Source of the DNA: Thermoplasmata archaeon
Lineage (GTDB): Archaea > Thermoplasmatota > Thermoplasmata > Lutacidiplasmatales > UBA184
Assembly (NCBI GenBank): GCA_021817605.1
Contig: JAKAUN010000002.1
Span: 3,676 to 67,675 of the forward strand
Direction: 5' to 3'
Length of the DNA: 64,000 nt
Below the pieces are notes generated by a model that was not told the DNA's origin, made no database searches, and worked only from the letters and a program-made list of their open reading frames with translations. Below, in pieces: positions 13,799-53,111 of this stretch; the stretch's first letter is position 1, and each line of letters starts with the position of its first letter. Both the position numbers and the translations under genes were made by a program.

Positions 13799-13872
13799 GC
13801 CGCGGTAACTCAGTTTGGGAGAGTGCAAGACTGAAGATCTTGAAGCCGCCGGTTCAAGCCCGGCCCGCGGCA
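13799..13872 (+). tRNA. tRNA-Phe (anticodon GAA), CCA not encoded
   Basis: Acceptor stem GCCGCGG/CCGCGGC with discriminator A. D-arm ACUC-AGUUUGGGA-GAGU, anticodon arm CAAGA-CUGAAGA-UCUUG (U33 followed by GAA), 5-nt variable loop, T-arm GCCGG-UUCAAGC-CCGGC. Confidence 0.9.
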
Positions 13873-13953: not shown

Positions 13954-14487
13954 CTACCGGTGCGTTTGGTCGGGAACGAACCAGACGTCCGTGATGCGGT
14001 ACTTCGGGCGGTCGGTGAACCGCGCGACGACGGGCATCCCGACGTAGATCTCCGGCTCGGTGCAGTCCTTGAGGCGGCCGAGAAGGAGGCTGCCGACCTT
14101 GTCGAACTCCACCAGGGCGAGGTTGTACGGCGTCTCGGAAAGGAACGCCTCGCTCCCGAAGTGGCAGGTGGTCCAGGAGTGGACCCGGCCGCTCTTGGGC
14201 AGCTCGAACCAGTCGGTCGGCTCCCCGCATACCATGCAGTTCGACCGCGGCGTGGCGTAGCGGAAGCCGCAGCTCCCCGACGTACAGCGCGAGCCGAGCA
14301 GCTTGCCCTCGGCCAGGCCGAGGAAGAACGGCGAGTCCTCGGCGTAGCTGTGGATGTACTCGATGGCGTAGGGATCGCGGATGACCAGGTTCTCGGAGCC
14401 CTGGGCGTCGCGGAAGATCGCCGAGCCGCTTCGTCCGAGCTCGGACTGGACGTCGCGGAACTTGTCGAAGGCGAGAGGTCGGGGCAT
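13954..14487 (-). CDS. DUF35 OB-fold/zinc-ribbon protein, the thiolase-associated scaffold subunit
   Basis: C-terminal 177 codons of read-through ORF 13954..15948: MPRPLAFDKFRD...CTSGSCGFRYATPRSNCMVCGEP..., a rubredoxin-like Zn ribbon followed by an OB fold. The ATG lies 3 nt after the thiolase stop. Confidence 0.8.
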   Translation of the reverse strand: MPRPLAFDKFRDVQSELGRSGSAIFRDAQGSENLVIRDPYAIEYIHSYAEDSPFFLGLAEGKLLGSRCTSGSCGFRYATPRSNCMVCGEPTDWFELPKSGRVHSWTTCHFGSEAFLSETPYNLALVEFDKVGSLLLGRLKDCTEPEIYVGMPVVARFTDRPKYRITDVWFVPDQTHR

Positions 14488-14489
14488 GG

Positions 14490-15911
14490 TCAGAACCCCC
14501 GCTCGAGGATCGAGACGGTCACCGACGAGCCGGTACCGGCGTGGCTGTGGATGGCTCCGCGCTTGGCCCCGGCGATCTGGAGCGTGCCGTCGCCGAAGTG
14601 CTTGTCCACCGTCCCTTGCAGCTGCCAGAGCGCGAAGACGGCCTGCATGAGCCCCGTGGCGCCGACCGGGTGCCCGCAGGCGATGAGCCCGCCGGAAGGG
14701 TTCACGGGGATCGTCCCGGCCTTGGGCACCTCGAGCCCGTAGTCGAGCCCCTTGAGGAACGGCGCTCCGGAGAGGGTGAAGTCGTAGCCTTCGCCGTAAC
14801 GGCAGAGCCCGAGGTCCTCGTAGGTCTGGATCTCGCTCGAGGCGTAGGCGTCGTGCAGCTCGACAAAGTCGAGCTCCTTGATCGGGTTGACGATCCCCGC
14901 CATCCGGTAGGCCTCGAGGCCCGCCGCGCGCCCCGCGCGGAAGGAATGCACACCGGGATAGGAGAGCCCGGCATAGTCGTTCTCGGTCTCGTGGGGGAAC
15001 CGCGGCACCTTGCCGAACGGTCGGTCGGCGAGACGCATCGTGTCGGTGCCGCAGCCGACCCCCGTGACCCGGACCGGGTGATCGGTGAACTCGCGGGCCC
15101 GCGACTCGTCGCAGAGGACCGCGACCGCGGCCCCGTCCGACATCGTGCAGATCTGCTCGCGGGTGAGCGGATAGCTGATCATCTCCGAGGCGAGGACGTC
15201 CTCGACGGTGAGCCGCTTCGGATACTGGGCGTAGGGGTTGTACAGGGCGTTGAGGTGGTTCTTCACCGAGACCCAGCTCATGATCCGCTGGCCCTCGGCG
15301 ATCGCGCGGCGCTGCGCCTCGCGCTCGTCGGTGATCCCGGCGAACTTGCCCCGGCGCAGGTACTCGTAGATGTGCCGGACGACCATGAGCGCGTAGTAGC
15401 CGGTGTAGAAGCCGCCGAGGGGGAAGTCGAAGTTCGTGTCGGAGGCGAGGGCGATGAACTCGTTGCCCTTCCAGGTCGCCACCCGGCTCATCGTCTCGTA
15501 GCCGGCAGCGAGGCAGACGTCCATCCGTCCGCTCGCCACGGCCTCGTAGGCGGCCTGGAAGCACTCGCCGCCGGTCGCTCCGCCCCACTCGATACGGACC
15601 GAACCCTTCGGGTTGAGCCCGAGGTAGTCCTGGACCATGCTCGCCGCCTTGAGCTGCCGGGAGAAATGGTCGGAGAAGTAGGAGATCCGCGAGCCGTCGA
15701 TCCGGTCCCTCGTCAGGTTCGGGGTGTCCTTGAGGGCGTAGTCGTAGGCTTTCTTCACCATCAGGCGGAAGTCCATCCCCGGATGGGCCTTGGCGAACTT
15801 CGTCACCCCGCCCGTAACGAGGTAGACCTTCCTCCCGGTCGACGCATGGGGACTTTCCGGATCGCGCCGCGACTCGGGGCGACGCTCCGGCGATGACGCT
15901 GTGGCGGACAT
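14490..15911 (-). CDS. Thiolase-superfamily protein, SCP-x/archaeal acetyl-CoA C-acetyltransferase type
   Basis: 473 aa; VYLVTGGVTKFAK...GGECFQAAYEAVASG...GHPVGATGLMQAVFALWQL are thiolase hallmarks. The N-terminal ~30 aa before VYLV may not be translated. Confidence 0.85.
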   Translation of the reverse strand: MSATASSPERRPESRRDPESPHASTGRKVYLVTGGVTKFAKAHPGMDFRLMVKKAYDYALKDTPNLTRDRIDGSRISYFSDHFSRQLKAASMVQDYLGLNPKGSVRIEWGGATGGECFQAAYEAVASGRMDVCLAAGYETMSRVATWKGNEFIALASDTNFDFPLGGFYTGYYALMVVRHIYEYLRRGKFAGITDEREAQRRAIAEGQRIMSWVSVKNHLNALYNPYAQYPKRLTVEDVLASEMISYPLTREQICTMSDGAAVAVLCDESRAREFTDHPVRVTGVGCGTDTMRLADRPFGKVPRFPHETENDYAGLSYPGVHSFRAGRAAGLEAYRMAGIVNPIKELDFVELHDAYASSEIQTYEDLGLCRYGEGYDFTLSGAPFLKGLDYGLEVPKAGTIPVNPSGGLIACGHPVGATGLMQAVFALWQLQGTVDKHFGDGTLQIAGAKRGAIHSHAGTGSSVTVSILERGF

Positions 15912-17987: not shown

Positions 17988-18346
17988 CGACCCAGATCAC
18001 CCCGGCTTCGGGCAGGGCTCCTCAACGGTCCCCCGCTAAAATTGTTTCCGCGGGACCGGGGGCTTCCCGAACGGACCGCCACGACGACGGCCTCGGAGCG
18101 GCGCGGCCTGGGCGTGGGACGGACACCGCCGGCCCACTCCGAGCCCGAGGGCGAACGCGAGAAGCCCCCGAGCCCGCGCCGGGGCCCCCCGGCGGGAACC
18201 GCCGGAGGACGGGTCGGCCGTCCGGCCGGAATCCGACCCCGTGCCGCGACGGGGCGGGAGAGGGCTCGGGACGTGGGCGCTCTTCTCCGCGCCCGAGCCG
18301 CCGGTCCGAGAGACCGCCGCGCTCCCGGTGAGCCTCCTGGTGACTG

Positions 18347-21300
18347 CTAGGGCACTTCCTTGCGGTCTGCGCACGCCGCGTCCGTGGGACGGTCCTCGTC
18401 TCCCGCGGTCTGCCCCCCAAGAGCAGCTCCCGACCGGGAGGCGCCCGCCGCGGCCAGGAGCAACGTCGTCGCGAGAGCGGCTGCCGCGGGGAGCGCGAGC
18501 CCGGCACCGCCCACCGGCCCGCCGACCGACAACGCGGACGGAAGGCGGGGGAGCGCGGGGGGGTTCATGGTGACGTTGACGAGCTGCCTCGGAGACGGCG
18601 CGTGGAGCACCGCAATCGTTCCGCTGGCAGGGGTCGGGGCCTGCGTGTTCGCGACCCCCACGGTGTAGGTGTAGTTGCCTATCGGCAAGAGGAAACGGAT
18701 GACGCCCTTGCCGGCGAGCTTCGAAAGGGTCGTGGGGAAGGTGAGCGCCGGGGTCGAGCCGGTCGCGATCGTGACCGTCCAGGTCGCCCCAGCCTGTAGG
18801 CCCTTCTCGCGGAAGACGATCGCCTCGGTCAGTAGGCGGAACTTCACCACCTTGGTGAGGGCATGCTTGGGAACGTGGAACCCACCCTTGGCCGGCAGGA
18901 CCTTGTACTCCGCTCCCGGGCCGGCGATCGCGAAGTGGAAGGCGGCGCCGGTCGGTAGGGAGAACGATATCGAGGTGCCGGTCGATGTCTTCGACTGGCC
19001 GGCGGGTCCGCCGTGGGGGAACGCGGGGGTGAGATCAACTCCCCAGGTCGACCCCGCGTACTTCTGGAACTTCGCTAGCGAGCTCTGGTTGAAGGTGACC
19101 GTCTGGAGGTGCCCGAAGATGACCGTCCACGTGGCGACCCCCGACAGCGAGTAGGTCGGGGTCCCGTAGGTCTGGTTGGGCGACCCCGGACCCGCGATCC
19201 TGGCGACCCCCCATCCTGCGGGCCCACTGATGTTGTAGACGAGGGCGCCTGCCGCCTCCGAGAACGAGACCGAACCTGTCGACCCGGTCCCGGTCGTCAC
19301 CGTGGTGTCGCTCCTCACGATCCCGAGAACATCCACCGACCAGAGCGCCCCGGCCGGGAGGTGGAGCTCCCGGAAGCGCAAGGTGTGCCCGAGCGACGCC
19401 GTGAAGACGATGGGGATGTTCACGGGGCTCCCGCTGATCGAGAACTGCCCGCCGTAGAGGCTCGCGGCGAACCCCGGCACGAAGGGGATGGTGAAGTTGT
19501 AGCTGATGTTTTGGGCGTCCATGACCATCGCGTCGGGAGCCGGGGCGGTCGCCGTCACCGTGCCCGGAGGCGTGCCGAAAGCATGGCCGATCGAGAGCGA
19601 CCAATTCGTCCCGTTCGGGAGACCGGTCTCCGTGAACGTGGCGAGTTCGCCGGCTAGCAGGCTCGAGTTCGTCACCGCGTAGGCCTTCGACCAGTAGACG
19701 CTGGTCCCCGCGAACACGTTCTCTTGGAGGGTGATCGTGGTGAGCCCGTTGAAGCAGTCCGTCGCCTCGATGGACGCCGTCGGCACGACACTGGCGGCGC
19801 AGCTAGCCGCCGACTGGCTCGCGCCGTTGGACCCGGACGTGCTGGTCCCGATCAGCACGTTGTGGGCTGCCATCTGCGCCGTCCCGATGAGGAAGATCCC
19901 CGGCGCCCCGCTCGCCGCGTTGTTGACCACGTTCGCATCCACGGTGGTGATTCCCGTGCCTTGCGGCTCGGTCACGATGCCGTAGGCGAGGCTGTCGGTC
20001 ACGGTGTTGCCGTCGATCGTCGCCGGGGCGCCCGCGATGCCCGCGTAGCTCGAGGTGTACATCGCATACAAGATTCCGACCGAGCTCGAGCCCACGTGGT
20101 TCGCCTCGATGTTGCACGTCAAAGCCCCCGGAGCACATCCGGCCCAGATCGCCGACGATTGGGTCTGGGTGAAGTAGGAGCCGCCGGTCTCGAAGGAGAA
20201 GCCGCGGACGGTGTTGCCTGAGACGGTCACCGAGCTACCCCAGACGATGATCCCGCCCTCGGAGGCCGCCGTATCGGCTGCCCCTGGGCCGAGAACCGTG
20301 TTGCCGATCACCGAGAAGGTCCCGGTGGGCTCGACCGACGTTGCGGGGAAGATGTCGCCCGCCTCGATCCCCACCGGGCCGCCGGGGCCGGCCCCGCCGG
20401 CTCCGAGCGTGACCGTCGAGGATTCGATCGTGGCGCTCGTCAGGGCGGGGGCCACGATGATCCCGTTGACAGCGCCCGTTCCGAGCGTCGTCGCGTCCTT
20501 CACCGTGACCCCGTTCGCTTGGACCCCGATCGAGTTGCCGTCGCTCGGGTAGCCCGTCGTGTTGATCGTGAAACTCGCCCCGTTGAGCGTGCTGTCGGCC
20601 CAGTAGTCCGTAACGTTGCCCGCAAAGCTCGAGCGCAACGTGGCGACCGTGCCGGCTACCGACACCAGGCTGGCGTTCGTCGGGATCCCGCTCGAGCTCA
20701 GCACGAGCTGGCCGGGAGCCGCGTGGACGAACACGAGCACCGGCTCGACCACCGCCGAGCCGCTGACGGAGCCAACACCCGGGGTGATCAGCGTGTTCTC
20801 GTACCACCCGCCAATCGCTCCGATGCCGTAGGAGAACGATCCGTTCTGGAGATCGCCGACGATCGACGCCGGCGCGGGAACGTTGGCCGTGGTGCCGTTC
20901 ATCGTCACGGACCAGTCGAGGCCCGGGGTAAGGCCGCTCTCGGACCACGTAACATGCTCCCCACCCCGCTGGAACGAAGTCGCCGGGTAGGTCGGGAAGG
21001 TCGCCGTCCAGTCCGGCGCGTTCGTCTGAGCGAAGATGTTGGCGTTCAGCGTGACCTCGGTCGCGGGGTTGAAGCAATCGGTGGCCTCGACCGACGCGGT
21101 CGGGATCGTCGAAGCGACGCAGCTCGCCTGACCTTGGAGCGCCCCGTTGGTGCCGGTGGTGTTCGTCCCCAGGAAGACGTTCCCGGTCAGCGAGAAGGTC
21201 CCTCCAATGAGATAGGCGCCTGGGGCGCCGCTGGGAGCACTGGCGAACGTGTTGGACTCGACCAGGGAGACTCCCGCGGCCCCGGTGGGCTCAAGGACCA

Positions 21301-22240
21301 TCCCGTAGGCGAGGCTGTTGGTGATGGTGTTGTGCAGGACCACTACGGCCGATTGAGCGATGCTCCCAAAACCGGAGGTCATGAGGGCGTAGACGATGCC
21401 GATGCCGTTCGTGTTGAGGGTGTTGGAGTTGATGTCGCACGCAGGCGCGCCTACGGCGCAGCCGGCGAGGATCCCCACGGACTGGGTGTCCTGGAACCAT
21501 GAGGAGTAGGTATTCGCACCGGAGGTCGTGGTCGTGTCCAGGGAGAATCCGCTCACCGTGCTGTTGGTGATCGCGACGGAGTTTCCGTAGACGACGATCC
21601 CGGTCTCGCCGGCGGTGCCTCCCGCACCAGGACCGACGACCGTGACCGCGTTCACGACGAAGGTGCCCGTGGGCTCGACCGCCGTGGCCGGGAATACGTT
21701 GCCGAGCTGAATCCCCAGAGCCGTCGTGCTTCCGGCGGCGAGCGTCACCGTCGAGCTTTCGATCGTCGCCGAGGAGGTGACGAGCGAAGGCGCCGCAAGG
21801 ATCCCGTCCGTGCTGCCGCTCGAGATCGTCACGAAATTCTGCACCGTGATGCCGTTCGCCTCGAGGCTGAGAGCCGCGAGGTCGGTGGGATACGCCGTCG
21901 CGTTGACCACGCACCCGGAGCCGTCCAGCATACTGTTGGCAAACGAATCAGAAAGGTTGCCCGAGAAGCCCTCGAGCACCGTCACCACCGAACCGTTGAC
22001 GGAGACCGCTGTCGGGTCGCTCGAGACCCCTCCGGCAGAGATGGTGACCGTCCCGAGACTACCGGCGGAGGGGCAGGCGGCCAAGGTGGAGAAGGCAGGC
22101 CCTCCCGGCGCCGATCCGACGGAGGACCCGAGGAAGGGGCCCGCGCCGGCAATCGTGGGGGCAAGGGCGAACCCCACCACCGCGAGGAGGCCGACCAGGG
22201 CCGCCCGGACCACCACGCGTCGAGGGGCGCTCATAGCCAC
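18347..22240 (-). CDS. Large secreted surface protein, an S-layer/cell-envelope glycoprotein candidate: signal peptide, two tandem ~440-aa beta-helix-like modules, C-terminal domains and a C-terminal transmembrane anchor
   Basis: 1297 aa. N-terminal Sec signal MAMSAPRRVVVRAALVGLLAVVGFALAPTIAGAG. Composition is T/S/G/A/N/V-rich with GNTV/NTVT-like beta-helix rung motifs. About 20 N-x-S/T sequons. Conserved Cys pairs C261/C268, C374/C389 are repeated as C702/C709, C814/C829. C-terminal hydrophobic helix LALPAAAALATTLLLAAAGA followed by a charged tail. Confidence 0.8.
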   Translation of the reverse strand: MAMSAPRRVVVRAALVGLLAVVGFALAPTIAGAGPFLGSSVGSAPGGPAFSTLAACPSAGSLGTVTISAGGVSSDPTAVSVNGSVVTVLEGFSGNLSDSFANSMLDGSGCVVNATAYPTDLAALSLEANGITVQNFVTISSGSTDGILAAPSLVTSSATIESSTVTLAAGSTTALGIQLGNVFPATAVEPTGTFVVNAVTVVGPGAGGTAGETGIVVYGNSVAITNSTVSGFSLDTTTTSGANTYSSWFQDTQSVGILAGCAVGAPACDINSNTLNTNGIGIVYALMTSGFGSIAQSAVVVLHNTITNSLAYGMVLEPTGAAGVSLVESNTFASAPSGAPGAYLIGGTFSLTGNVFLGTNTTGTNGALQGQASCVASTIPTASVEATDCFNPATEVTLNANIFAQTNAPDWTATFPTYPATSFQRGGEHVTWSESGLTPGLDWSVTMNGTTANVPAPASIVGDLQNGSFSYGIGAIGGWYENTLITPGVGSVSGSAVVEPVLVFVHAAPGQLVLSSSGIPTNASLVSVAGTVATLRSSFAGNVTDYWADSTLNGASFTINTTGYPSDGNSIGVQANGVTVKDATTLGTGAVNGIIVAPALTSATIESSTVTLGAGGAGPGGPVGIEAGDIFPATSVEPTGTFSVIGNTVLGPGAADTAASEGGIIVWGSSVTVSGNTVRGFSFETGGSYFTQTQSSAIWAGCAPGALTCNIEANHVGSSSVGILYAMYTSSYAGIAGAPATIDGNTVTDSLAYGIVTEPQGTGITTVDANVVNNAASGAPGIFLIGTAQMAAHNVLIGTSTSGSNGASQSAASCAASVVPTASIEATDCFNGLTTITLQENVFAGTSVYWSKAYAVTNSSLLAGELATFTETGLPNGTNWSLSIGHAFGTPPGTVTATAPAPDAMVMDAQNISYNFTIPFVPGFAASLYGGQFSISGSPVNIPIVFTASLGHTLRFRELHLPAGALWSVDVLGIVRSDTTVTTGTGSTGSVSFSEAAGALVYNISGPAGWGVARIAGPGSPNQTYGTPTYSLSGVATWTVIFGHLQTVTFNQSSLAKFQKYAGSTWGVDLTPAFPHGGPAGQSKTSTGTSISFSLPTGAAFHFAIAGPGAEYKVLPAKGGFHVPKHALTKVVKFRLLTEAIVFREKGLQAGATWTVTIATGSTPALTFPTTLSKLAGKGVIRFLLPIGNYTYTVGVANTQAPTPASGTIAVLHAPSPRQLVNVTMNPPALPRLPSALSVGGPVGGAGLALPAAAALATTLLLAAAGASRSGAALGGQTAGDEDRPTDAACADRKEVP
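19406..22000 (-). repeat. Intragenic tandem duplication, two ~1.3-kb modules (aa 81-500 and 526-945 of the surface protein)
   Basis: Collinear matches with offset 440-450 aa: GNLSDSF/GNVTDYW; ESSTVTLAAG/ESSTVTLGAG; TVSGFSLDT/TVRGFSFET; AGCAVGAPACDI/AGCAPGALTCNI; SLAYGMVLEP/SLAYGIVTEP; SCVASTIPTASVEATDCFN/SCAASVVPTASIEATDCFN; ESGLTPGLDWSVTMNG/ETGLPNGTNWSLSIG. Confidence 0.7.
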
Positions 22241-22417
22241 CCCTCGCTTAGGTCGACCCGTTCGAACCGCGCAGAACCGCTTCGGGATTCGGGAGCAAAC
22301 ACCATCTCCGCTACCTTACCTTAGATTTGAGAGGGTCAGCTGAATAAATACCAGTTGCCCCCCGGGCCAAGGACCGGCGGTCGGCGTCCGCTTTTCGGCC
22401 CTCGGGAAGCAACAACG

Positions 22418-22427
22418 CCTAAATAGG
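22418..22427 (+). promoter_or_regulatory. Candidate TATA box (CCTAAATAGG) ~35-40 nt upstream of the tuf start
   Basis: AT-rich element in the GC-rich divergent intergenic region. A second TATA-like AATAAATA at 22344-22351 could serve the divergent surface-protein gene on the minus strand, with an ~80-100 nt leader. Confidence 0.4.
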
Positions 22428-22460
22428 GGTGATTTGTCGGCGCGCCCGGAGCGCAAATCC

Positions 22461-47118: not shown

Positions 47119-48141
47119 TCAGCCCGGGGTCGGCTGGCGAACGACGGCCTTGCGCCCGTAGCGCCAGGACCCCTCGATGGCGTAGAGGCGCCGCAGCCTC
47201 GTGTCGACCCGGCCGCCTAGCCGGATCTCACCCGGCTCCGTATCGGTGAGGGCCACCGTGGCTCGGAGACCGTCGGCGAGCGCGACGAGCGCCACCCCGT
47301 AGGGCCCGACAGCGGCGACCTGCTCGTCGAACTCGGTAGGCTGGCCTCCGGGGCCGATCCAGGTGAGCGCGACGACCTCGAGCCCGTCTCGGGGGAGCGA
47401 CTCCGCGGTGAGCGTGTCCGCCCGGCCGCAGCGGCGGCAGCGACCCCGGGAAGGGAAGCTGAGTGTCGAGCAGGAGCGGCATCTCTCGCCGGAGAACCTC
47501 CAGCGGCTGGCGACGGCCTCGAGGTAGCTCGCCCGCGGGACGTAGGCGCCCTCGGAGACGGCCGCCGACGGGAACGCCGGCGGTCCCTGGGGGGGCGGAG
47601 GACGTCCCACGGCAGGGCTAGCCGCCCAGTCGCCCACCCAAGCTTTCGCCGCGGCTGCGTCGGCCCGTTGGGCGATCGGGACGAGCGCGGCGAGCTCCTG
47701 CCCCGGGAGGGGAGCTGTCCCCGCGGGGAGAAGGCTCGCCGTCGAGGAAGGGAGCTCGTCGACCAGGAGGGCAAAGGCCCCCTCGCCCGGGGGCGGGACG
47801 GCCGACGCGGGGGAGCCCGAGGCCTCCTCCACGGCACCGACCAGCAGTTCCGGTCCGGCTCCGTGGGAGGCACGTTCGAGGGCGTCGGCAAGGGGGGAGG
47901 CGGTCGGGTCGGGCGCGGGAACCACCGTCACGCTCTCGCCGAGGATCCCGGCAAGCAGCTCCGGAGGGAGGGCCCGTGCGGCGCCGACTTCCCGGATCGT
48001 CCAGGCGGGTGGCCTCGAGGTGCTGCCGGCTAGTAGCCGCTCAAGCGCCGTCGCCACCAGCGTGAAGGCGTCCTCGTCCCAGGAGCGGACGCGGCGCCGG
48101 CCGTCGGTGCGGGTGGGGAGGTAGGCGGCGGCCCGCAGCAC
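47119..48141 (-). CDS. DUF35 OB-fold/zinc-ribbon protein with ~200-aa low-complexity N-terminal extension
   Basis: C-terminal CRSCSTLSFPSRGRCRRCG zinc ribbon plus OB fold. The N-terminus AAAYLPTRTDGRRRVRSWDEDAFTLVATALERLL recalls the start of HMG-CoA synthase, but the rest is an A/P/S-rich linker. Confidence 0.7.
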   Translation of the reverse strand: MLRAAAYLPTRTDGRRRVRSWDEDAFTLVATALERLLAGSTSRPPAWTIREVGAARALPPELLAGILGESVTVVPAPDPTASPLADALERASHGAGPELLVGAVEEASGSPASAVPPPGEGAFALLVDELPSSTASLLPAGTAPLPGQELAALVPIAQRADAAAAKAWVGDWAASPAVGRPPPPQGPPAFPSAAVSEGAYVPRASYLEAVASRWRFSGERCRSCSTLSFPSRGRCRRCGRADTLTAESLPRDGLEVVALTWIGPGGQPTEFDEQVAAVGPYGVALVALADGLRATVALTDTEPGEIRLGGRVDTRLRRLYAIEGSWRYGRKAVVRQPTPG

Positions 48142-48157
48142 CCCGCGCGTCGTCCTC

Positions 48158-49321
48158 TCACCCCACCGAGTAGATCGTCACGGCGCAGGTCGCCCCGGCC
48201 CCGCCGACATTGTGCGTGAGCGCGCTTCGGGCCCCCGGGACCTGGCGGGGGCCGGCGCTCCCGCGGAGCTGGTGGAAGACCTCGTAGGCCTGAGAGACGC
48301 CCGTCGCTCCGATCGGATGGCCCTTGGCCTTGAGCCCCCCGTCGGGGTTGACAGGGATCCGGCCGTCGCGGCGCGTCGCCCCCGAGAGGGTGAGGGCTCC
48401 GGCCTCCCCACGGCCGGCGAAGCCGAGGTCCTCGAGGGCGAGGAGCTCGGCGATCGTGAAGCAGTCATGGACCTCGAGGAAGGAGATCGACCCACGCTCG
48501 GCCCCGGCGGAGCGGAAGGCGGTCTCGGCGGCCCGTCGGCTCGCCTCGAAGCCGGTGAGCTCGGCCCGCTCCTGCACGGCGAGGCGGTCGGAGGCCGCCC
48601 CGATCCCGTCGACGTAGACCGGCGTGTCGGTGTACCGTTTCGCCGTTTCGGTCGAGGCGAGGAGGACGGCGGCGGCCCCGTCGCTCACCGGACAGCAGTC
48701 GTAGAGCCCGAGCGGATCGGCGACCCGGGGGCTGCGCAGGGCCTGTTCGCGCTCGATGCGCTTCTGGAAGTGCGCGTTCGGGTTGAGCGCGCCGTTCTCG
48801 TGGTTCTTGACCGCGACCTCGGCGAGGGCCTCGCGCCCGAGCCGGTAGCGGTCGAGATAGGCCGAGGCGAGAAGCCCGTAGACCCCGGCGAAGGTGAGCC
48901 CGGCCTGGCGCTCCCACTCGGTGTCGCCCGAGACACCGAGCCAGAAGCGGCGGCGGGCGTTGGAGACGTCGGTCATCTTCTCGAGGCCCGCGACGAGGAC
49001 GAGGTCGGCCGACCCCGAGGCGATGGCGTGGACCGCCTCGTGAAGCGCAAAGCCGCCGGACGCGCAGGCGTTCTCGACCCGGACGCAGGCCAGCCCGGGG
49101 ACGCCGAGCTCCTCGGCGAGCAGGGCGGAGGAGTTGCCGATCTGCCAGCCGCCGAAGCCCAGCGACGCGAGGTAGCTGCGGTCCACCGCCGACGGCTCGA
49201 AAGCGCGGTCGACGCTGCCGAGCGCCTGGCGCACCGCGCTCCCCAGAAGGGCCCGGGGTCCCTCGGGAAGGACGCCGAACCGGGTGTGCCCCGCCCCGAC
49301 GATCGCCGCGCGATGCACCAC
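48158..49321 (-). CDS. Archaeal acetyl-CoA C-acetyltransferase (thiolase)
   Basis: 387 aa. AAIVGAGHTRFG, NACASGGFALHEA (Cys active site), GHPIGATGVSQ, NVGGAGATCAVTI. Confidence 0.9.
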   Translation of the reverse strand: MVHRAAIVGAGHTRFGVLPEGPRALLGSAVRQALGSVDRAFEPSAVDRSYLASLGFGGWQIGNSSALLAEELGVPGLACVRVENACASGGFALHEAVHAIASGSADLVLVAGLEKMTDVSNARRRFWLGVSGDTEWERQAGLTFAGVYGLLASAYLDRYRLGREALAEVAVKNHENGALNPNAHFQKRIEREQALRSPRVADPLGLYDCCPVSDGAAAVLLASTETAKRYTDTPVYVDGIGAASDRLAVQERAELTGFEASRRAAETAFRSAGAERGSISFLEVHDCFTIAELLALEDLGFAGRGEAGALTLSGATRRDGRIPVNPDGGLKAKGHPIGATGVSQAYEVFHQLRGSAGPRQVPGARSALTHNVGGAGATCAVTIYSVG

Positions 49322-51545: not shown

Positions 51546-53111
51546 ATGGCGCGGATCCGAAGAGGCTCCACAGTCCGGGAGGCGGACCTCCTTTCGCGAG
51601 CCAAGGCGCTGAGGTCGAGCGTCGAGCCGCTGCTCCCGCGGCTCACCGCCGAGTGCCCGACCGAGCGGTTCGACCGTCTTCGGCAGGAGCTCGAGGAGGT
51701 CCGGGCCGCACGCGAGGACGACAAGCGGCTCACGCGTCTCTCCCGCTGGGGGGATCCTCTCGCCCGGGCCTACGCCGGCCTGCTCAAGTTCGCCCTCGAA
51801 CCGACGGCGCCCGCGGTGGTCGCCTTCGAGATCCCGGGTGGCGAGGTCTCCTTCGCGCCGCTCGCCCGCACCGACCGGGAGGCAGAGGTCGCGGTGCAAC
51901 AGTCGGACGACCCGGGACGCCTGCTCCTCGGCTACCTCACCTGGGGGAAACGCGGCTTTCACTTCTTCGCGACCCGCAAGACGCTCTGGTGCACGGGACG
52001 CTCGCCGACCCCTCCTGAGGAGTTCCTCGCGGAACGGATCGCCGAGCAGCCGTACCGCCTCATCGAGAACGCTGCGGAACGACGGTTCGACTGCCCGCAC
52101 CTTTCCAGCGGAGAGCCTCGACCCTACCTCGAGGTCGGCTGGGTCGGCGCGGACCGGCGGTTCCGGGTCTGCCGCCGCTGCGCGAAGGAGGGCCGTCAGC
52201 TGCTCTCGAGCCTGTCGGAAGGGGCGCTCGGGCCGGACCCCGTCGCGGAGTTCCCCGTCGCGGCCTCGCTCAACGTCCGCTGCTCCGGCGGGCAGGCGTG
52301 CGTGCACGCCGTCCTCCCGGAGCTGCCCCGCCCGCTCCGCCAGAGCTACGAGCGAGGGCGCCTTTCGGACGCGCAGCTGATCGACGAGTACCTCCTCGAG
52401 CTCAGGCCGCGTCTCGAGCGGGTGAGCCGGCCGACGTTCGTTGCCGGCGGGGTCTGCTACGGCTCCGATCTCTCGGGCTTTCTCCAGGCACTAGATCCCA
52501 CCCCGGCCGAACGGGCCGCGCTCGAGACGGTCCTCGGCGGACGCCCCGGGCTCTTTGAGGTGGACGAGCCGTCCGCGAGCCGGGCGCTCGAGAAGCTCTG
52601 GGCGTCGCACGCGGAGGAGATCGTCTCGGCGATCGTCCACGACCCGAAGGAGGCCCGACGGCTCGTCGACCAAGCCCGCGGCGCCCCGGGGCGCGTCGCG
52701 GAGATCCTCAAGCGCGCCCAGCGCCAGAGCGAGACCCGGGAGCTTCTGGGGACCTTGCCACAGTACGCTTCGCTCGCCCCCGAGGCCGCGTGGGCGGACC
52801 GGATCGCCCGCGTCCATCGCACCGGAGGGGATGCGGCCGCCGAGCGCGCCGTCACCGAGTCGCTCCCCCGCGAGGGCAAGACCCGCGGGCTCGCCTACGG
52901 GATGCTCCTCGCCATCGGGCGGACCGGCCCGCATGCCTGGCAGTTCTCCCCGACGGAGAAGGAGTTCGGCCAGTCGCTCGAGCCGCGGGCCCGTGCGCTC
53001 CTCGGCTCGACGCCGGAGGGCTACCACGAGGCGCTCGGCGCCCTCCTTACCGCCGCCGGCGTCGCGGGGTGGGGAACTCTGGCGGCTCCCAACGTTCCGC
53101 GCGAAGGGTAG
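51546..53111 (+). CDS. Conserved hypothetical cytoplasmic protein, 521 aa, with central Cys-rich segment
   Basis: Protein-like composition throughout. Cys cluster FDCPHLSSGE...RVCRRCAKEG...VRCSGGQACVHA. No family recognised. Confidence 0.55.
   Translation: MARIRRGSTVREADLLSRAKALRSSVEPLLPRLTAECPTERFDRLRQELEEVRAAREDDKRLTRLSRWGDPLARAYAGLLKFALEPTAPAVVAFEIPGGEVSFAPLARTDREAEVAVQQSDDPGRLLLGYLTWGKRGFHFFATRKTLWCTGRSPTPPEEFLAERIAEQPYRLIENAAERRFDCPHLSSGEPRPYLEVGWVGADRRFRVCRRCAKEGRQLLSSLSEGALGPDPVAEFPVAASLNVRCSGGQACVHAVLPELPRPLRQSYERGRLSDAQLIDEYLLELRPRLERVSRPTFVAGGVCYGSDLSGFLQALDPTPAERAALETVLGGRPGLFEVDEPSASRALEKLWASHAEEIVSAIVHDPKEARRLVDQARGAPGRVAEILKRAQRQSETRELLGTLPQYASLAPEAAWADRIARVHRTGGDAAAERAVTESLPREGKTRGLAYGMLLAIGRTGPHAWQFSPTEKEFGQSLEPRARALLGSTPEGYHEALGALLTAAGVAGWGTLAAPNVPREG

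Follow-up and report, generated by a model that had tools for sequence, protein, structure and literature searches.

A rare gene for a probable accessory surface protein with two tandem beta-helix heads in an uncultured, high-GC Thermoplasmata archaeon

Of all genes in the window (the whole 64-kb stretch of DNA that we analysed), the largest encodes a protein built around two tandem copies of a beta-helix module. We conclude that this protein, from an uncultured Thermoplasmata archaeon with high-GC DNA, probably belongs to the cell surface as a lineage-specific accessory and not to the core of the envelope, and a role in binding or processing glycans would be the best reading of its function. 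The source is assigned to the Thermoplasmata because the nearest EF-1alpha sequences and all genomes that carry homologues belong to MAGs labelled "Thermoplasmata archaeon".

The gene and its upstream region

An open reading frame occupies 18347..22240 on the minus strand, and its codon-position composition (GC3 0.88, GC2 0.58) is that of coding DNA and resembles the values of other genes in the window. Spurious long ORFs are common in DNA of 70% GC, and many long overlapping ORFs are present here on both strands, but the notion that this one is no real gene is refuted and retains practically no probability: the codon-position GC is that of a gene, homologues in other MAGs are 39-44% identical across 86-97% of its length, the same protein sequence is called on three independent contigs, and the AF2 fold is confident. 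The original prediction described a 1297-aa protein, the largest in the window. The ORF listing of the 64 kb bears out the size rank and the ORF is real, but the predicted GTG start at 22240 adds two codons; translation probably begins at the ATG at 22234, because a Shine-Dalgarno-like sequence lies 4-11 nt upstream and the identical database twin (P0001) is 1295 aa long. The features of the gene are as follows, with residues numbered as in the ORF.

18347..22234, minus strand: coding sequence from the ATG, 1295 aa plus stop
22142..22234, minus strand: predicted Sec-type signal peptide (residues 3-33), by inspection, predicted cut after A-G-A
22061..22141, minus strand: Gly/Ser/Pro/Ala low-complexity linker (residues 34-60), 30% identity among homologues; pLDDT <50 for model residues 1-19
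20978..22060, minus strand: beta-helix head A (residues 61-421), right-handed parallel beta-helix
21437-21460 and 21074-21121, minus strand: conserved head A Cys pairs 261/268 and 374/389
20723..20971, minus strand: beta-sandwich 1 (residues 424-506), GLPxGTxW-type motif, invariant sequon N466; E 1e-31
19664..20719, minus strand: beta-helix head B (residues 508-859), duplicate of head A; E 7e-143
20114-20137 and 19754-19801, minus strand: head B Cys pairs 702/709 and 814/829
19397..19660, minus strand: beta-sandwich 2 (residues 861-948), invariant sequon N911; E 5e-27
18557..19390, minus strand: three more beta-sandwich domains, more diverged, that form the stalk (residues 951-1228)
18437..18505, minus strand: Ala/Leu-rich, weakly hydrophobic segment (residues 1246-1268), possible membrane anchor, not conserved
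18350..18436, minus strand: 29-residue tail (residues 1269-1297), mostly acidic, with a single Cys, not conserved
22238-22245: Shine-Dalgarno-like GAGGGGTG in the leader
22235..22315, minus strand: presumed 5' leader of ~60-80 nt, its transcription start placed from the TATA position
22321-22328: second AT-rich box, upstream of the gene
22341..22351, minus strand: TATA-like element TATTTATT / TATTTATTCA, ~105 nt upstream of the ATG, candidate promoter

The gene is divergent to tuf, and the TATA-like element and long leader that had been described for it are all present. AT-rich octamer clusters (at least 7 of 8 positions A or T) number only 13 in the 64 kb, 12 of them intergenic, and the TATA-like element is one of the 13; before other genes in the window such boxes lie mostly 14-30 nt, and occasionally up to 67 nt, from the start. 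The leader RNA folds no better than shuffled sequences (z = +1.65) and matches no family in an Rfam scan of the window, in which the sole match was a tRNA. A scan for sigma-70 promoters and intrinsic terminators, with models unsuited to archaea, returned nothing.

Two tandem beta-helix heads on a stalk

A module of ~445 aa is duplicated in tandem, with ORF residues ~64-505 and ~510-955 sharing 43% identity (E 1e-90). The recurring motifs that had suggested beta-helix rungs are real and mainly reflect this duplication, with rung periodicity as an additional contribution, and the beta-helix architecture itself is confirmed by the predicted structure (AF2) and its structural neighbours. Each head is a right-handed, three-stranded parallel beta-helix like those of PbH1/CASH pectin-lyase-fold proteins (PF13229; NosD, PF05048), and the neighbours include the AlgE4 A-module (2pyg), NosD (7o0y), K5 lyase (2x3h) and PL6 lyases, at identities of 18% or less. 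The target scores 20.2 bits against Pfam Beta_helix (PF13229), below the cut-off of 25.9, and matches no other Pfam family; searches of PDB sequences with module and domain profiles gave no meaningful match up to E 1. Three homologues do exceed the thresholds of the Beta_helix and NosD models: P0005 (72.3 bits for PF13229, its highest-scoring stretch lying within its module A), P0012 (44.7 bits) and P0094 (43.2 bits). Membership of the target in Beta_helix is therefore only transitive. The heads differ from known PbH1/CASH proteins in having their own motifs (YSSWFEDTQSVGIFAGC, NTVTDSLAYG, SGAPG and GSNGAxQGxDxC...TASVEASDC) and two putative disulfide loops each, and from NosD in having neither a copper-related motif nor a nos context at the locus. 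No paralogue of the head or sandwich domains occurs elsewhere in the window.

The four conserved Cys pairs of the original prediction were recovered, two per module at equivalent positions, in both of our alignments (A1 and A2), while C56, C110 and C1290 are not conserved. The 12 aligned modules all retain the Cys-paired loops, and a set of polar residues (E, Q, S, N, D) does not vary among them. Two positions are always Glu and another is nearly always Asp, conserved loops lie on successive rungs, and no position is an invariant Lys, Arg or His.

Structure comparison gives the stalk a CnaB/transthyretin-like fold, similar to that of the prealbumin-fold stalks of Gram-positive pilins and MSCRAMMs but with no sequence relation to them; named fold relatives are the B. 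anthracis TIE protein 6fwv, GBS52 (3phs), the SdrD B domains (4jdz) and the carboxypeptidase-D-type domain 5aq0. The stalk domain is distinguished from CnaB by its own signature, GGE-x5-E-x-GLP-x-GT-x-W ... QNGS, and the absence of a conserved Lys from the domain alignment makes a CnaB-type isopeptide bond impossible. No Pfam or NCBIfam model covers the domain (~80 aa), and NCBIfam returned neither a sorting signal nor a family for the proteins that contain it. More than 4,700 other proteins (cluster representatives) contain it together with different heads, among them propellers of the YncE and NHL types and FG-GAP, phosphoesterase and ice-binding domains; a word-indexed protein search with an 85-aa profile of the domain gave only 4 short matches. 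Uncultured soil Thermoplasmata have a large modular set of predicted exported proteins in which varied heads sit on a common stalk domain, and both the stalk domain and the double-head module merit profile models for annotation.

Export, sequons and the C-terminal segment

The Sec signal peptide assigned earlier is convincing by inspection: the N-terminus (MSAPRRVVVRAALVGLLAVVGFALAPTIAGA/GP, with the slash at the predicted cut) combines a basic n-region with an h-region of 15 residues (Kyte-Doolittle up to 2.47) and has A-G-A before the cut, and the cleavage-site region is conserved among homologues as GFALAPAxAG. Tat export was considered, as the n-region contains an RR pair (SAPRRVVV), and Sec was preferred because the h-region is strongly hydrophobic and the RR is not conserved in homologues. 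The composition (A 13.6, G 13.0, T 12.0, S 10.4 and V 9.1%, with only 14 Lys in the whole protein) agrees with a T/S/G/V-rich description, but at 4.7% Asn the protein had been called N-rich with some overstatement. We counted 20 N-x-S/T sequons, the number predicted, which is a modest excess over the 13.4 +/- 3.2 expected from 20,000 shuffles (P = 0.03); all five homologues have the same trend, and N466, N542 and N911 are sequons in 6/6 sequences.

The C-terminal helix and charged tail without a PGF motif were also borne out in outline, since the segment is present and the target contains neither PGF nor a match to an NCBIfam sorting signal (up to E 1), but the segment is weakly hydrophobic and followed by only one Arg. 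Its Kyte-Doolittle value is 1.87-2.0, and its Hessa-type sum, from a simple version with approximate scale values, is a marginal +1.7 kcal/mol, compared with a sum below 0 for 80 of 161 proteins examined. Where an archaeosortase substrate (PGF-CTERM, PEF-CTERM and similar) would carry its signature motif, TM helix and terminal basic cluster, the C-terminus reads ...GAGLALPAAAALATTLLLAAAGASRSG... and continues for 24 more, mostly acidic residues. If the segment before it crosses the membrane, the 29-residue tail would lie in the cytoplasm; given the marginal helix and the single basic residue after it, the target could instead be released. Most relatives stop directly after the last sandwich domain, without an anchor, and the region downstream of P0002 contains just an unrelated small gene and no lost anchor. 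Of 153 stalk-domain proteins examined, 94 have a strong C-terminal TM segment, followed in 92 by at least two K/R, as in a type I anchor. A sorting signal not described before may operate at the C-terminus in the stalk-domain superfamily, consisting of (F/L)LG(L/M)P-x2-3-(E/D)GY followed by a TM helix and an Arg cluster; the target would keep only a faint trace of it. Neither AglB/STT3 nor an archaeosortase was found among the ~50 window ORFs scanned with Pfam.

Distribution and competing roles

The beta-helix module is present in 9 of 185,579 GTDB species representatives and ~20 of 1.84 billion cluster representatives, and 241 million records of JGI metagenomes contain it at a single locus. 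In six tuf loci of the nearest relatives, whose EF-1alpha is 91-92% identical, gene order is conserved on both sides of tuf, and the slot between 4HBT/HTH and tuf is occupied there by a methyltransferase, a glyoxalase or nothing, never by the beta-helix gene, an absence that applies to the syntenic tuf slot only, as the gene may sit elsewhere in those genomes. The slot in the window contains no remnant of the relatives' methyltransferase or glyoxalase. Conservation of this order without the gene indicates that its adjacency to tuf is an accident of insertion. Among homologues, the distal heads are 48-51% identical and the stalk 31%, while the C-terminus is unconserved, a pattern more in keeping with a head directed at a ligand or substrate than with a protein that forms a lattice.

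We propose that the preprotein would be exported by Sec and lose its signal peptide, and that an acidic ectodomain of ~120 kDa (pI ~4.6, 23% Ser+Thr) would fold outside the cell, probably N-glycosylated at least at the three invariant sequons. Each of the two tandem, right-handed CASH/PbH1-type heads would be stabilised by two disulfide-stapled loops and capped by a small beta-sandwich, with three more CnaB/transthyretin-like sandwiches holding the heads off the membrane; the weak Ala/Leu helix would be the probable tether in this genome, and in most relatives the protein would be released. The heads, as the conserved functional part, may bind an extracellular polysaccharide or other glycan and possibly cleave or modify it, which could help the cells to attach or to acquire nutrients in soil or peat. 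By adhering to glycans or depolymerising them, proteins of the double-head family may take part in the carbon turnover of soil and peat. The "adhesin-like proteins" of Methanobacteriales, with PbH1 repeats, are surface adhesins that carry a beta-helix head on a stalk. PfbA of Streptococcus pneumoniae (3zpp, 4mr0) is likewise a beta-helix head on a stalk. The protein described here differs from these stalked adhesins in its two tandem heads, in its stalk domain and in its weak TM segment, or, in most homologues, no anchor, in place of LPXTG or pseudomurein binding.

The original prediction of an envelope glycoprotein candidate is reasonable, because the protein is predicted to be exported, has a beta-helix fold, conserved Cys pairs and sequons, and may have a C-terminal tether. 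Its extension to an S-layer or sole surface layer is not supported, given the rarity of the gene, its absence from the relatives' slot and the mostly missing anchor; a rare accessory adhesin absent from relatives had been named as the outcome that would speak against it, and the counts and the six tuf loci largely describe such a gene. We consider it improbable that anchored, beta-helix-headed subunits pack into the only surface layer as a principal envelope glycoprotein. A large, acidic, Ser/Thr-rich, predicted exported protein with sequons and a possible anchor would be suited to that role, and a TATA-like box with a leader unusually long relative to other window genes would suit an abundant structural protein. 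Also in its favour, no S-layer gene has been identified in cultured Thermoplasmatales, even in Picrophilus with its visible S-layer (PMC10354927; PMC5744192). For uncultured soil Thermoplasmata the cell surface is practically uncharted. A rare add-on gene that is missing from relatives at this spot is, however, unlikely to encode the main surface layer; moreover, conservation is highest in the exposed heads and lowest in the part next to the membrane, and the protein belongs to a large set of stalked paralogues that bear various heads. An archaeal S-layer protein, such as Sulfolobus SlaA/SlaB (8qox), Haloferax csg or Methanothermus SlgA, would be expected to be encoded by a core gene of relatives with the same envelope type, which the species counts and the six tuf loci do not show. 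The gene ranks only 35 of 42 in codon adaptation index relative to tuf and S10, although the index also places the ribosomal proteins S4 and S13 low (26 and 30); because it fails to separate ribosomal proteins we dropped it as evidence, leaving the leader and TATA box as the only expression-related features that still favour an S-layer. There is similarly little chance that the protein and its few relatives form an S-layer-like envelope glycoprotein of a narrow soil or peat lineage of Thermoplasmata; it would then be the first surface-layer protein to be identified in the class, with double beta-helix heads on a stalk.

A stronger competitor to an accessory surface protein, though still unlikely, is a polysaccharide-active enzyme that the cell releases, in which both beta-helix modules are catalytic (a glycoside hydrolase, or epimerase- or lyase-like) and the C-terminal segment is no functional anchor. 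The invariant Glu residues, the nearly invariant Asp and the conserved loops on successive rungs would suit an active site, and the marginal hydrophobic segment of the target and the anchorless homologues would suit release. Neither the catalytic motifs nor the family match of carbohydrate-active beta-helix enzymes (GH28, PL1/PL6/PL9, AlgE/AlgG) was found, however: the sequence matches no CAZyme-type Pfam family or solved enzyme, and contains no recognisable GH28 Asp triad, AlgE YG(F/I)DPH(D/E) or, with Lys, Arg and His all variable, PL Lys/Arg base. The fold is equally common to non-enzymatic adhesins and NosD.

The fold search also returned many tailspike matches, which raised the idea of a provirus. 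A provirus or tailspike origin was rejected, as the neighbouring genes are all housekeeping genes in conserved synteny.

Gene model, predicted export and domain architecture

The beta-helix gene, ORF 18347..22240 on the reverse strand, is the largest gene of the window and is transcribed divergently from its neighbor tuf, the EF-1alpha gene, as the original prediction stated. The window is 70% GC and crowded with long spurious ORFs, yet we give almost no credence to the idea that this ORF is one of them, since its GC3 (0.88) and GC2 (0.58) match the codon-position composition of real genes and an identical protein, P0001 (1295 aa), was called on three independent contigs. The NCBI contig measures 198 kb, and the source soils are those of samples ERZ27233565 and SRR13205815. 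Translation likely starts at an ATG (22234) that lies two codons downstream of the GTG chosen previously; a Shine-Dalgarno-like motif, GAGGGGTG, lies 4-11 nt upstream of this ATG. The predicted TATA-like element was also seen, and its position would give the long leader: a TATTTATT box is located ~105 nt upstream of the ATG, and AT-rich clusters of this kind number only 13 in 64 kb, 12 of them intergenic. In other window genes the distance from AT-rich box to start is mostly 14-30 nt and in occasional cases reaches 67 nt. TATA-like boxes stand 21-27 nt ahead of several start codons (e.g. 10868, 13634, 41115 and 41795), indicating mostly leaderless mRNAs in the window, a pattern to which the beta-helix gene, with a leader of ~60-100 nt and a Shine-Dalgarno-like motif, is an exception.

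At the N-terminus (MSAPRRVVVRAALVGLLAVVGFALAPTIAGA, then GP) we recognized by inspection a basic n-region, an h-region of strong hydrophobicity (Kyte-Doolittle up to 2.47) and an A-x-A site, with cleavage predicted near residue 33, and the h/c-region is kept as GFALAPAxAG across homologues, in agreement with the proposed Sec signal peptide. The n-region also contains a twin arginine (SAPRRVVV, window 22213-22227, reverse strand) with partial resemblance to a Tat motif; this RR is not kept in most homologues, and the h-region of the protein is very hydrophobic. The protein is rich in A, G, T, S and V, so that the composition described earlier holds for T, S, G and V; with 4.7% Asn it is not Asn-rich. 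The count of about 20 N-x-S/T sequons was confirmed (20, compared with 13.4 +/- 3.2 in shuffles, P = 0.03); a 1.3- to 1.6-fold excess was found in all five full-length homologues, and N466, N542 and N911 are sequons in 6/6 sequences. The four Cys pairs (261/268, 374/389, 702/709 and 814/829) proved conserved in homologue alignments, two per module at equivalent positions, and C56, C110 and C1290 are not conserved.

An alignment of 452 positions pairs residues ~64-505 with ~510-955 (43% identity, E 1e-90) and identifies a tandem duplication; the recurring rung motifs noted earlier are real but mainly a product of it. Each of the two modules consists of a beta-helix head and its beta-sandwich, and HMMs built from 12 modules of six homologues gave the map below.

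Domain map of the protein (residues, ORF numbering)
61-421, beta-helix A
424-506, sandwich 1
508-859, beta-helix B
861-948, sandwich 2
up to ~1228, three weaker sandwich copies (the stalk)
1246-1268, hydrophobic segment
to 1297, C-terminal tail

The predicted beta-helix architecture is borne out by fold. By profile, membership in the superfamily is reached only transitively, via homologues: the Pfam Beta_helix model is sub-threshold in the protein itself (20.2 vs 25.9 bits) and above threshold in homologues P0005 (inside module A), P0012 and P0094. The protein would work like other stalked beta-helix surface proteins such as PfbA-type adhesins, phage tailspike-like depolymerases and the PbH1-repeat "adhesin-like proteins" of methanogens.

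Rare heads on a widespread stalk domain

Word-indexed searching across 5.8 billion proteins returned nine relatives; apart from the twin P0001, five of these are full-length. Nine genome matches, all in "Thermoplasmata archaeon" MAGs, were found among 185,579 GTDB species, and JGI metagenomes (241 million records) yielded one locus. When the module profile was run in full with HMMER against 1.84 billion cluster representatives, it gave 4,729 matches; nearly all of the best 150 were matched through profile positions 369-450 alone, which correspond to the ~80-aa sandwich domain, and the beta-helix part was matched in only ~20 of those 150. The sandwich domain, with signature GGE..E.GLP.GT.W...QNGS, is present in more than 4,700 of the cluster representatives, in up to 44 copies per protein among the matches listed, and no Pfam or NCBIfam model covered it in profile scans of the protein and its relatives.

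Sandwich-domain copies in the window
20723-20971, reverse strand
19397-19660, reverse strand
18557-19390, reverse strand (the three stalk copies)

The domain is also present at loci L003, L008, L010, L012 and L019. In other MAG loci and in profile matches it is joined to other heads, including YncE-type and NHL beta-propellers, FG-GAP, ice-binding and phosphoesterase domains, which points to a modular surface repertoire in these archaea, in which different heads are carried on a common stalk; the protein studied here is one member of it. In a close relative (L019, 69-2777), two "Ice_binding" (PF11999) proteins lie ~7 kb from tuf, and one of them carries three copies of the same stalk domain.

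The C-terminal anchor proposed originally exists as a hydrophobic segment, but a weak one (Kyte-Doolittle 1.9-2.0; +1.7 kcal/mol by a simple sum of approximate Hessa-type values). The charged tail described with it is 24 residues long and mostly acidic, and only one Arg follows the segment. A strong C-terminal TM helix was seen in 94 of 153 proteins examined, and in 92 of the 94 it is followed by at least two Lys/Arg, the type I anchor pattern. In most members of the beta-helix subfamily the chain ends precisely with the final strand of the last sandwich (...VTFSG, ...ITFS), namely in P0002, P0003, P0021, P0041, P0062, P0075, P0117 and P0124. No lost anchor was found in the 800 bp downstream of P0002, which lies inside an 809-kb contig, and the next gene begins 77 bp after P0003. 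Hydrophobic C-termini occur in the subfamily only in P0001, P0005, P0009 and P0012, indicating that anchoring is variable and dispensable in the family; that of the protein studied here is the weakest of the four by Kyte-Doolittle, with P0005 worse on the Hessa-type sum.

As predicted, the C-terminus has no PGF motif, and the protein failed a test for PGF-CTERM substrates. Among stalk-domain proteins from outside the window (P0011-P0151), 26 of the 94 anchored ones carry (F/L)LG(L/M)P-x2-3-(E/D/T)GY just ahead of the TM helix, which an Arg/Lys cluster follows, for example TFLGLPGYEGY-LLVGGVVVALVIALVVI-LRLRRPR and GFLGLSGYDGY, where ~0.004 per protein is expected by chance. None of the NCBIfam sorting-signal models recognizes the motif-bearing proteins, and the motif may represent a new kind of archaeal signal for sorting or processing at the C-terminus. 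A faint counterpart is present at window 18485-18520 (reverse strand). We regard the very widespread, unnamed stalk domain and this strongly enriched juxtamembrane motif as the more interesting by-products of the analysis.

A variable slot next to tuf

Neither tuf nor any window neighbor was found within 10 kb at any of the eight other homologue loci. The nearest EF-1alpha sequences are 88-92% identical, all named ones being from Thermoplasmata MAGs (at 91-92%, GCA_030038605.1, GCA_022750115.1, GCA_027377325.1, GCA_027342885.1 and GCA_027377365.1). At the six tuf loci of closest relatives that we read (L017-L022), gene order is that of the window: UvrA, creatininase, topoisomerase I, OB/thiolase, OTCase, HTH and the thioesterase gene 4HBT on one side, and tuf, S10, PS decarboxylase, CDP-alcohol phosphatidyltransferase, DHNA, citrate synthase, MFS, SAM_HAT and DnaJ on the other. 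Between 4HBT/HTH and tuf, the relatives have a small methyltransferase (full or truncated), a glyoxalase or nothing, and this genome has the 3.9-kb beta-helix gene (window 17988-22460). The beta-helix HMM had no match in the three relatives' tuf loci scanned. These conserved flanks and variable contents indicate that the gene was inserted into a housekeeping block, at a slot that varies. Judged from gene order, its position next to tuf is not meaningful. Rare and, at the level of the tuf slot in six loci, absent from relatives, the gene largely resembles the accessory adhesin that the original prediction had set against its own proposal.

Between its stop codon and the TATA-like box of 4HBT (18036-18047) are ~290 nt of very GC-rich DNA without a convincing gene (window 18060-18346), in which neither an Rfam match nor a remnant of the relatives' slot genes was found.

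Constraint, proposed function and other window features

Across the six full-length proteins, heads A and B have mean pairwise identities of 51% and 48%, respectively, and sandwiches 1 and 2 of 46% and 44%; the value falls to 31% in the stalk and is essentially nil at the C-terminus. The identity between A and B modules is about the same whether they come from one protein or from two (48-51%), except in the closest homologue, P0002 (L003, 10001-13834), whose own modules are 64% identical to each other and 47-60% identical to any orthologous module, which suggests gene conversion or re-duplication in that lineage. Two Glu, a Gln-Ser pair, several Asn and the Cys pairs are among the positions invariant in 12/12 modules, and one Asp is nearly invariant (conserved residues include E154, Q218, S219, E282 and D353, module numbering); no Lys, Arg or His is among the invariant positions. 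According to the DSSP string of the model, invariant residues lie mostly in post-strand loops of consecutive rungs, as well as in a long disulfide-stapled loop of low pLDDT. Such a pattern is that of a disposable spacer bearing a head with a specific site for a ligand or substrate, rather than of a lattice protein with a drifting exposed face.

Together, these data lead us to favor, with reasonable confidence, a two-headed, glycan-directed surface protein. It would be exported by Sec with cleavage of its signal peptide, its ectodomain would be disulfide-stabilized and probably N-glycosylated, and its two CASH-type heads, presented at the tip of a sandwich stalk with at most a weak membrane tether, would bind an extracellular glycan and may process it. 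That the protein is instead a released enzyme with a non-functional C-terminal segment, a reading that shares glycan processing with the one we favor, seems unlikely. No known catalytic motif was recognized, Pfam and PDB sequence searches gave no enzyme-family match, and the protein failed for every specific enzyme family tested. It also failed as a CnaB isopeptide domain. If the heads are enzymatic, a glycoside hydrolase would be a better fit than a lyase, since carboxylates are among the invariant residues and basic ones are not.

In the literature no S-layer gene is known from Thermoplasmatales, and only Picrophilus shows a lattice (PMC10354927, PMC5744192), making the S-layer role originally proposed reasonable a priori. 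The exported beta-helix glycoprotein candidate survives from that proposal; a role as S-layer or principal envelope protein is now improbable, because the gene failed as an S-layer core gene and is absent from the slot flanking tuf in six relatives' loci, and because conservation resides in the heads rather than following the drift of an exposed face, leaving the stalk at 31% and the C-terminus near zero.

Elsewhere in the window, a 521-aa ORF rich in Arg, Glu and Ala has gene-like GC3 (0.89) and a Cys cluster (CPH...C..C), and matched no Pfam family. A thiolase gene paired with one for OB_ChsH2_C (DUF35-like) occurs at two separate places within 35 kb, which is notable; this pairing is the archaeal acetoacetyl-CoA thiolase/HMG-CoA synthase scaffold arrangement.

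Other features of the window
13799-13872, forward strand, tRNA-Phe (GAA), the only RNA gene detected
13954-15911, reverse strand, thiolase and OB_ChsH2_C pair
47119-49321, reverse strand, thiolase and OB_ChsH2_C pair
51546-53111, forward strand, 521-aa ORF
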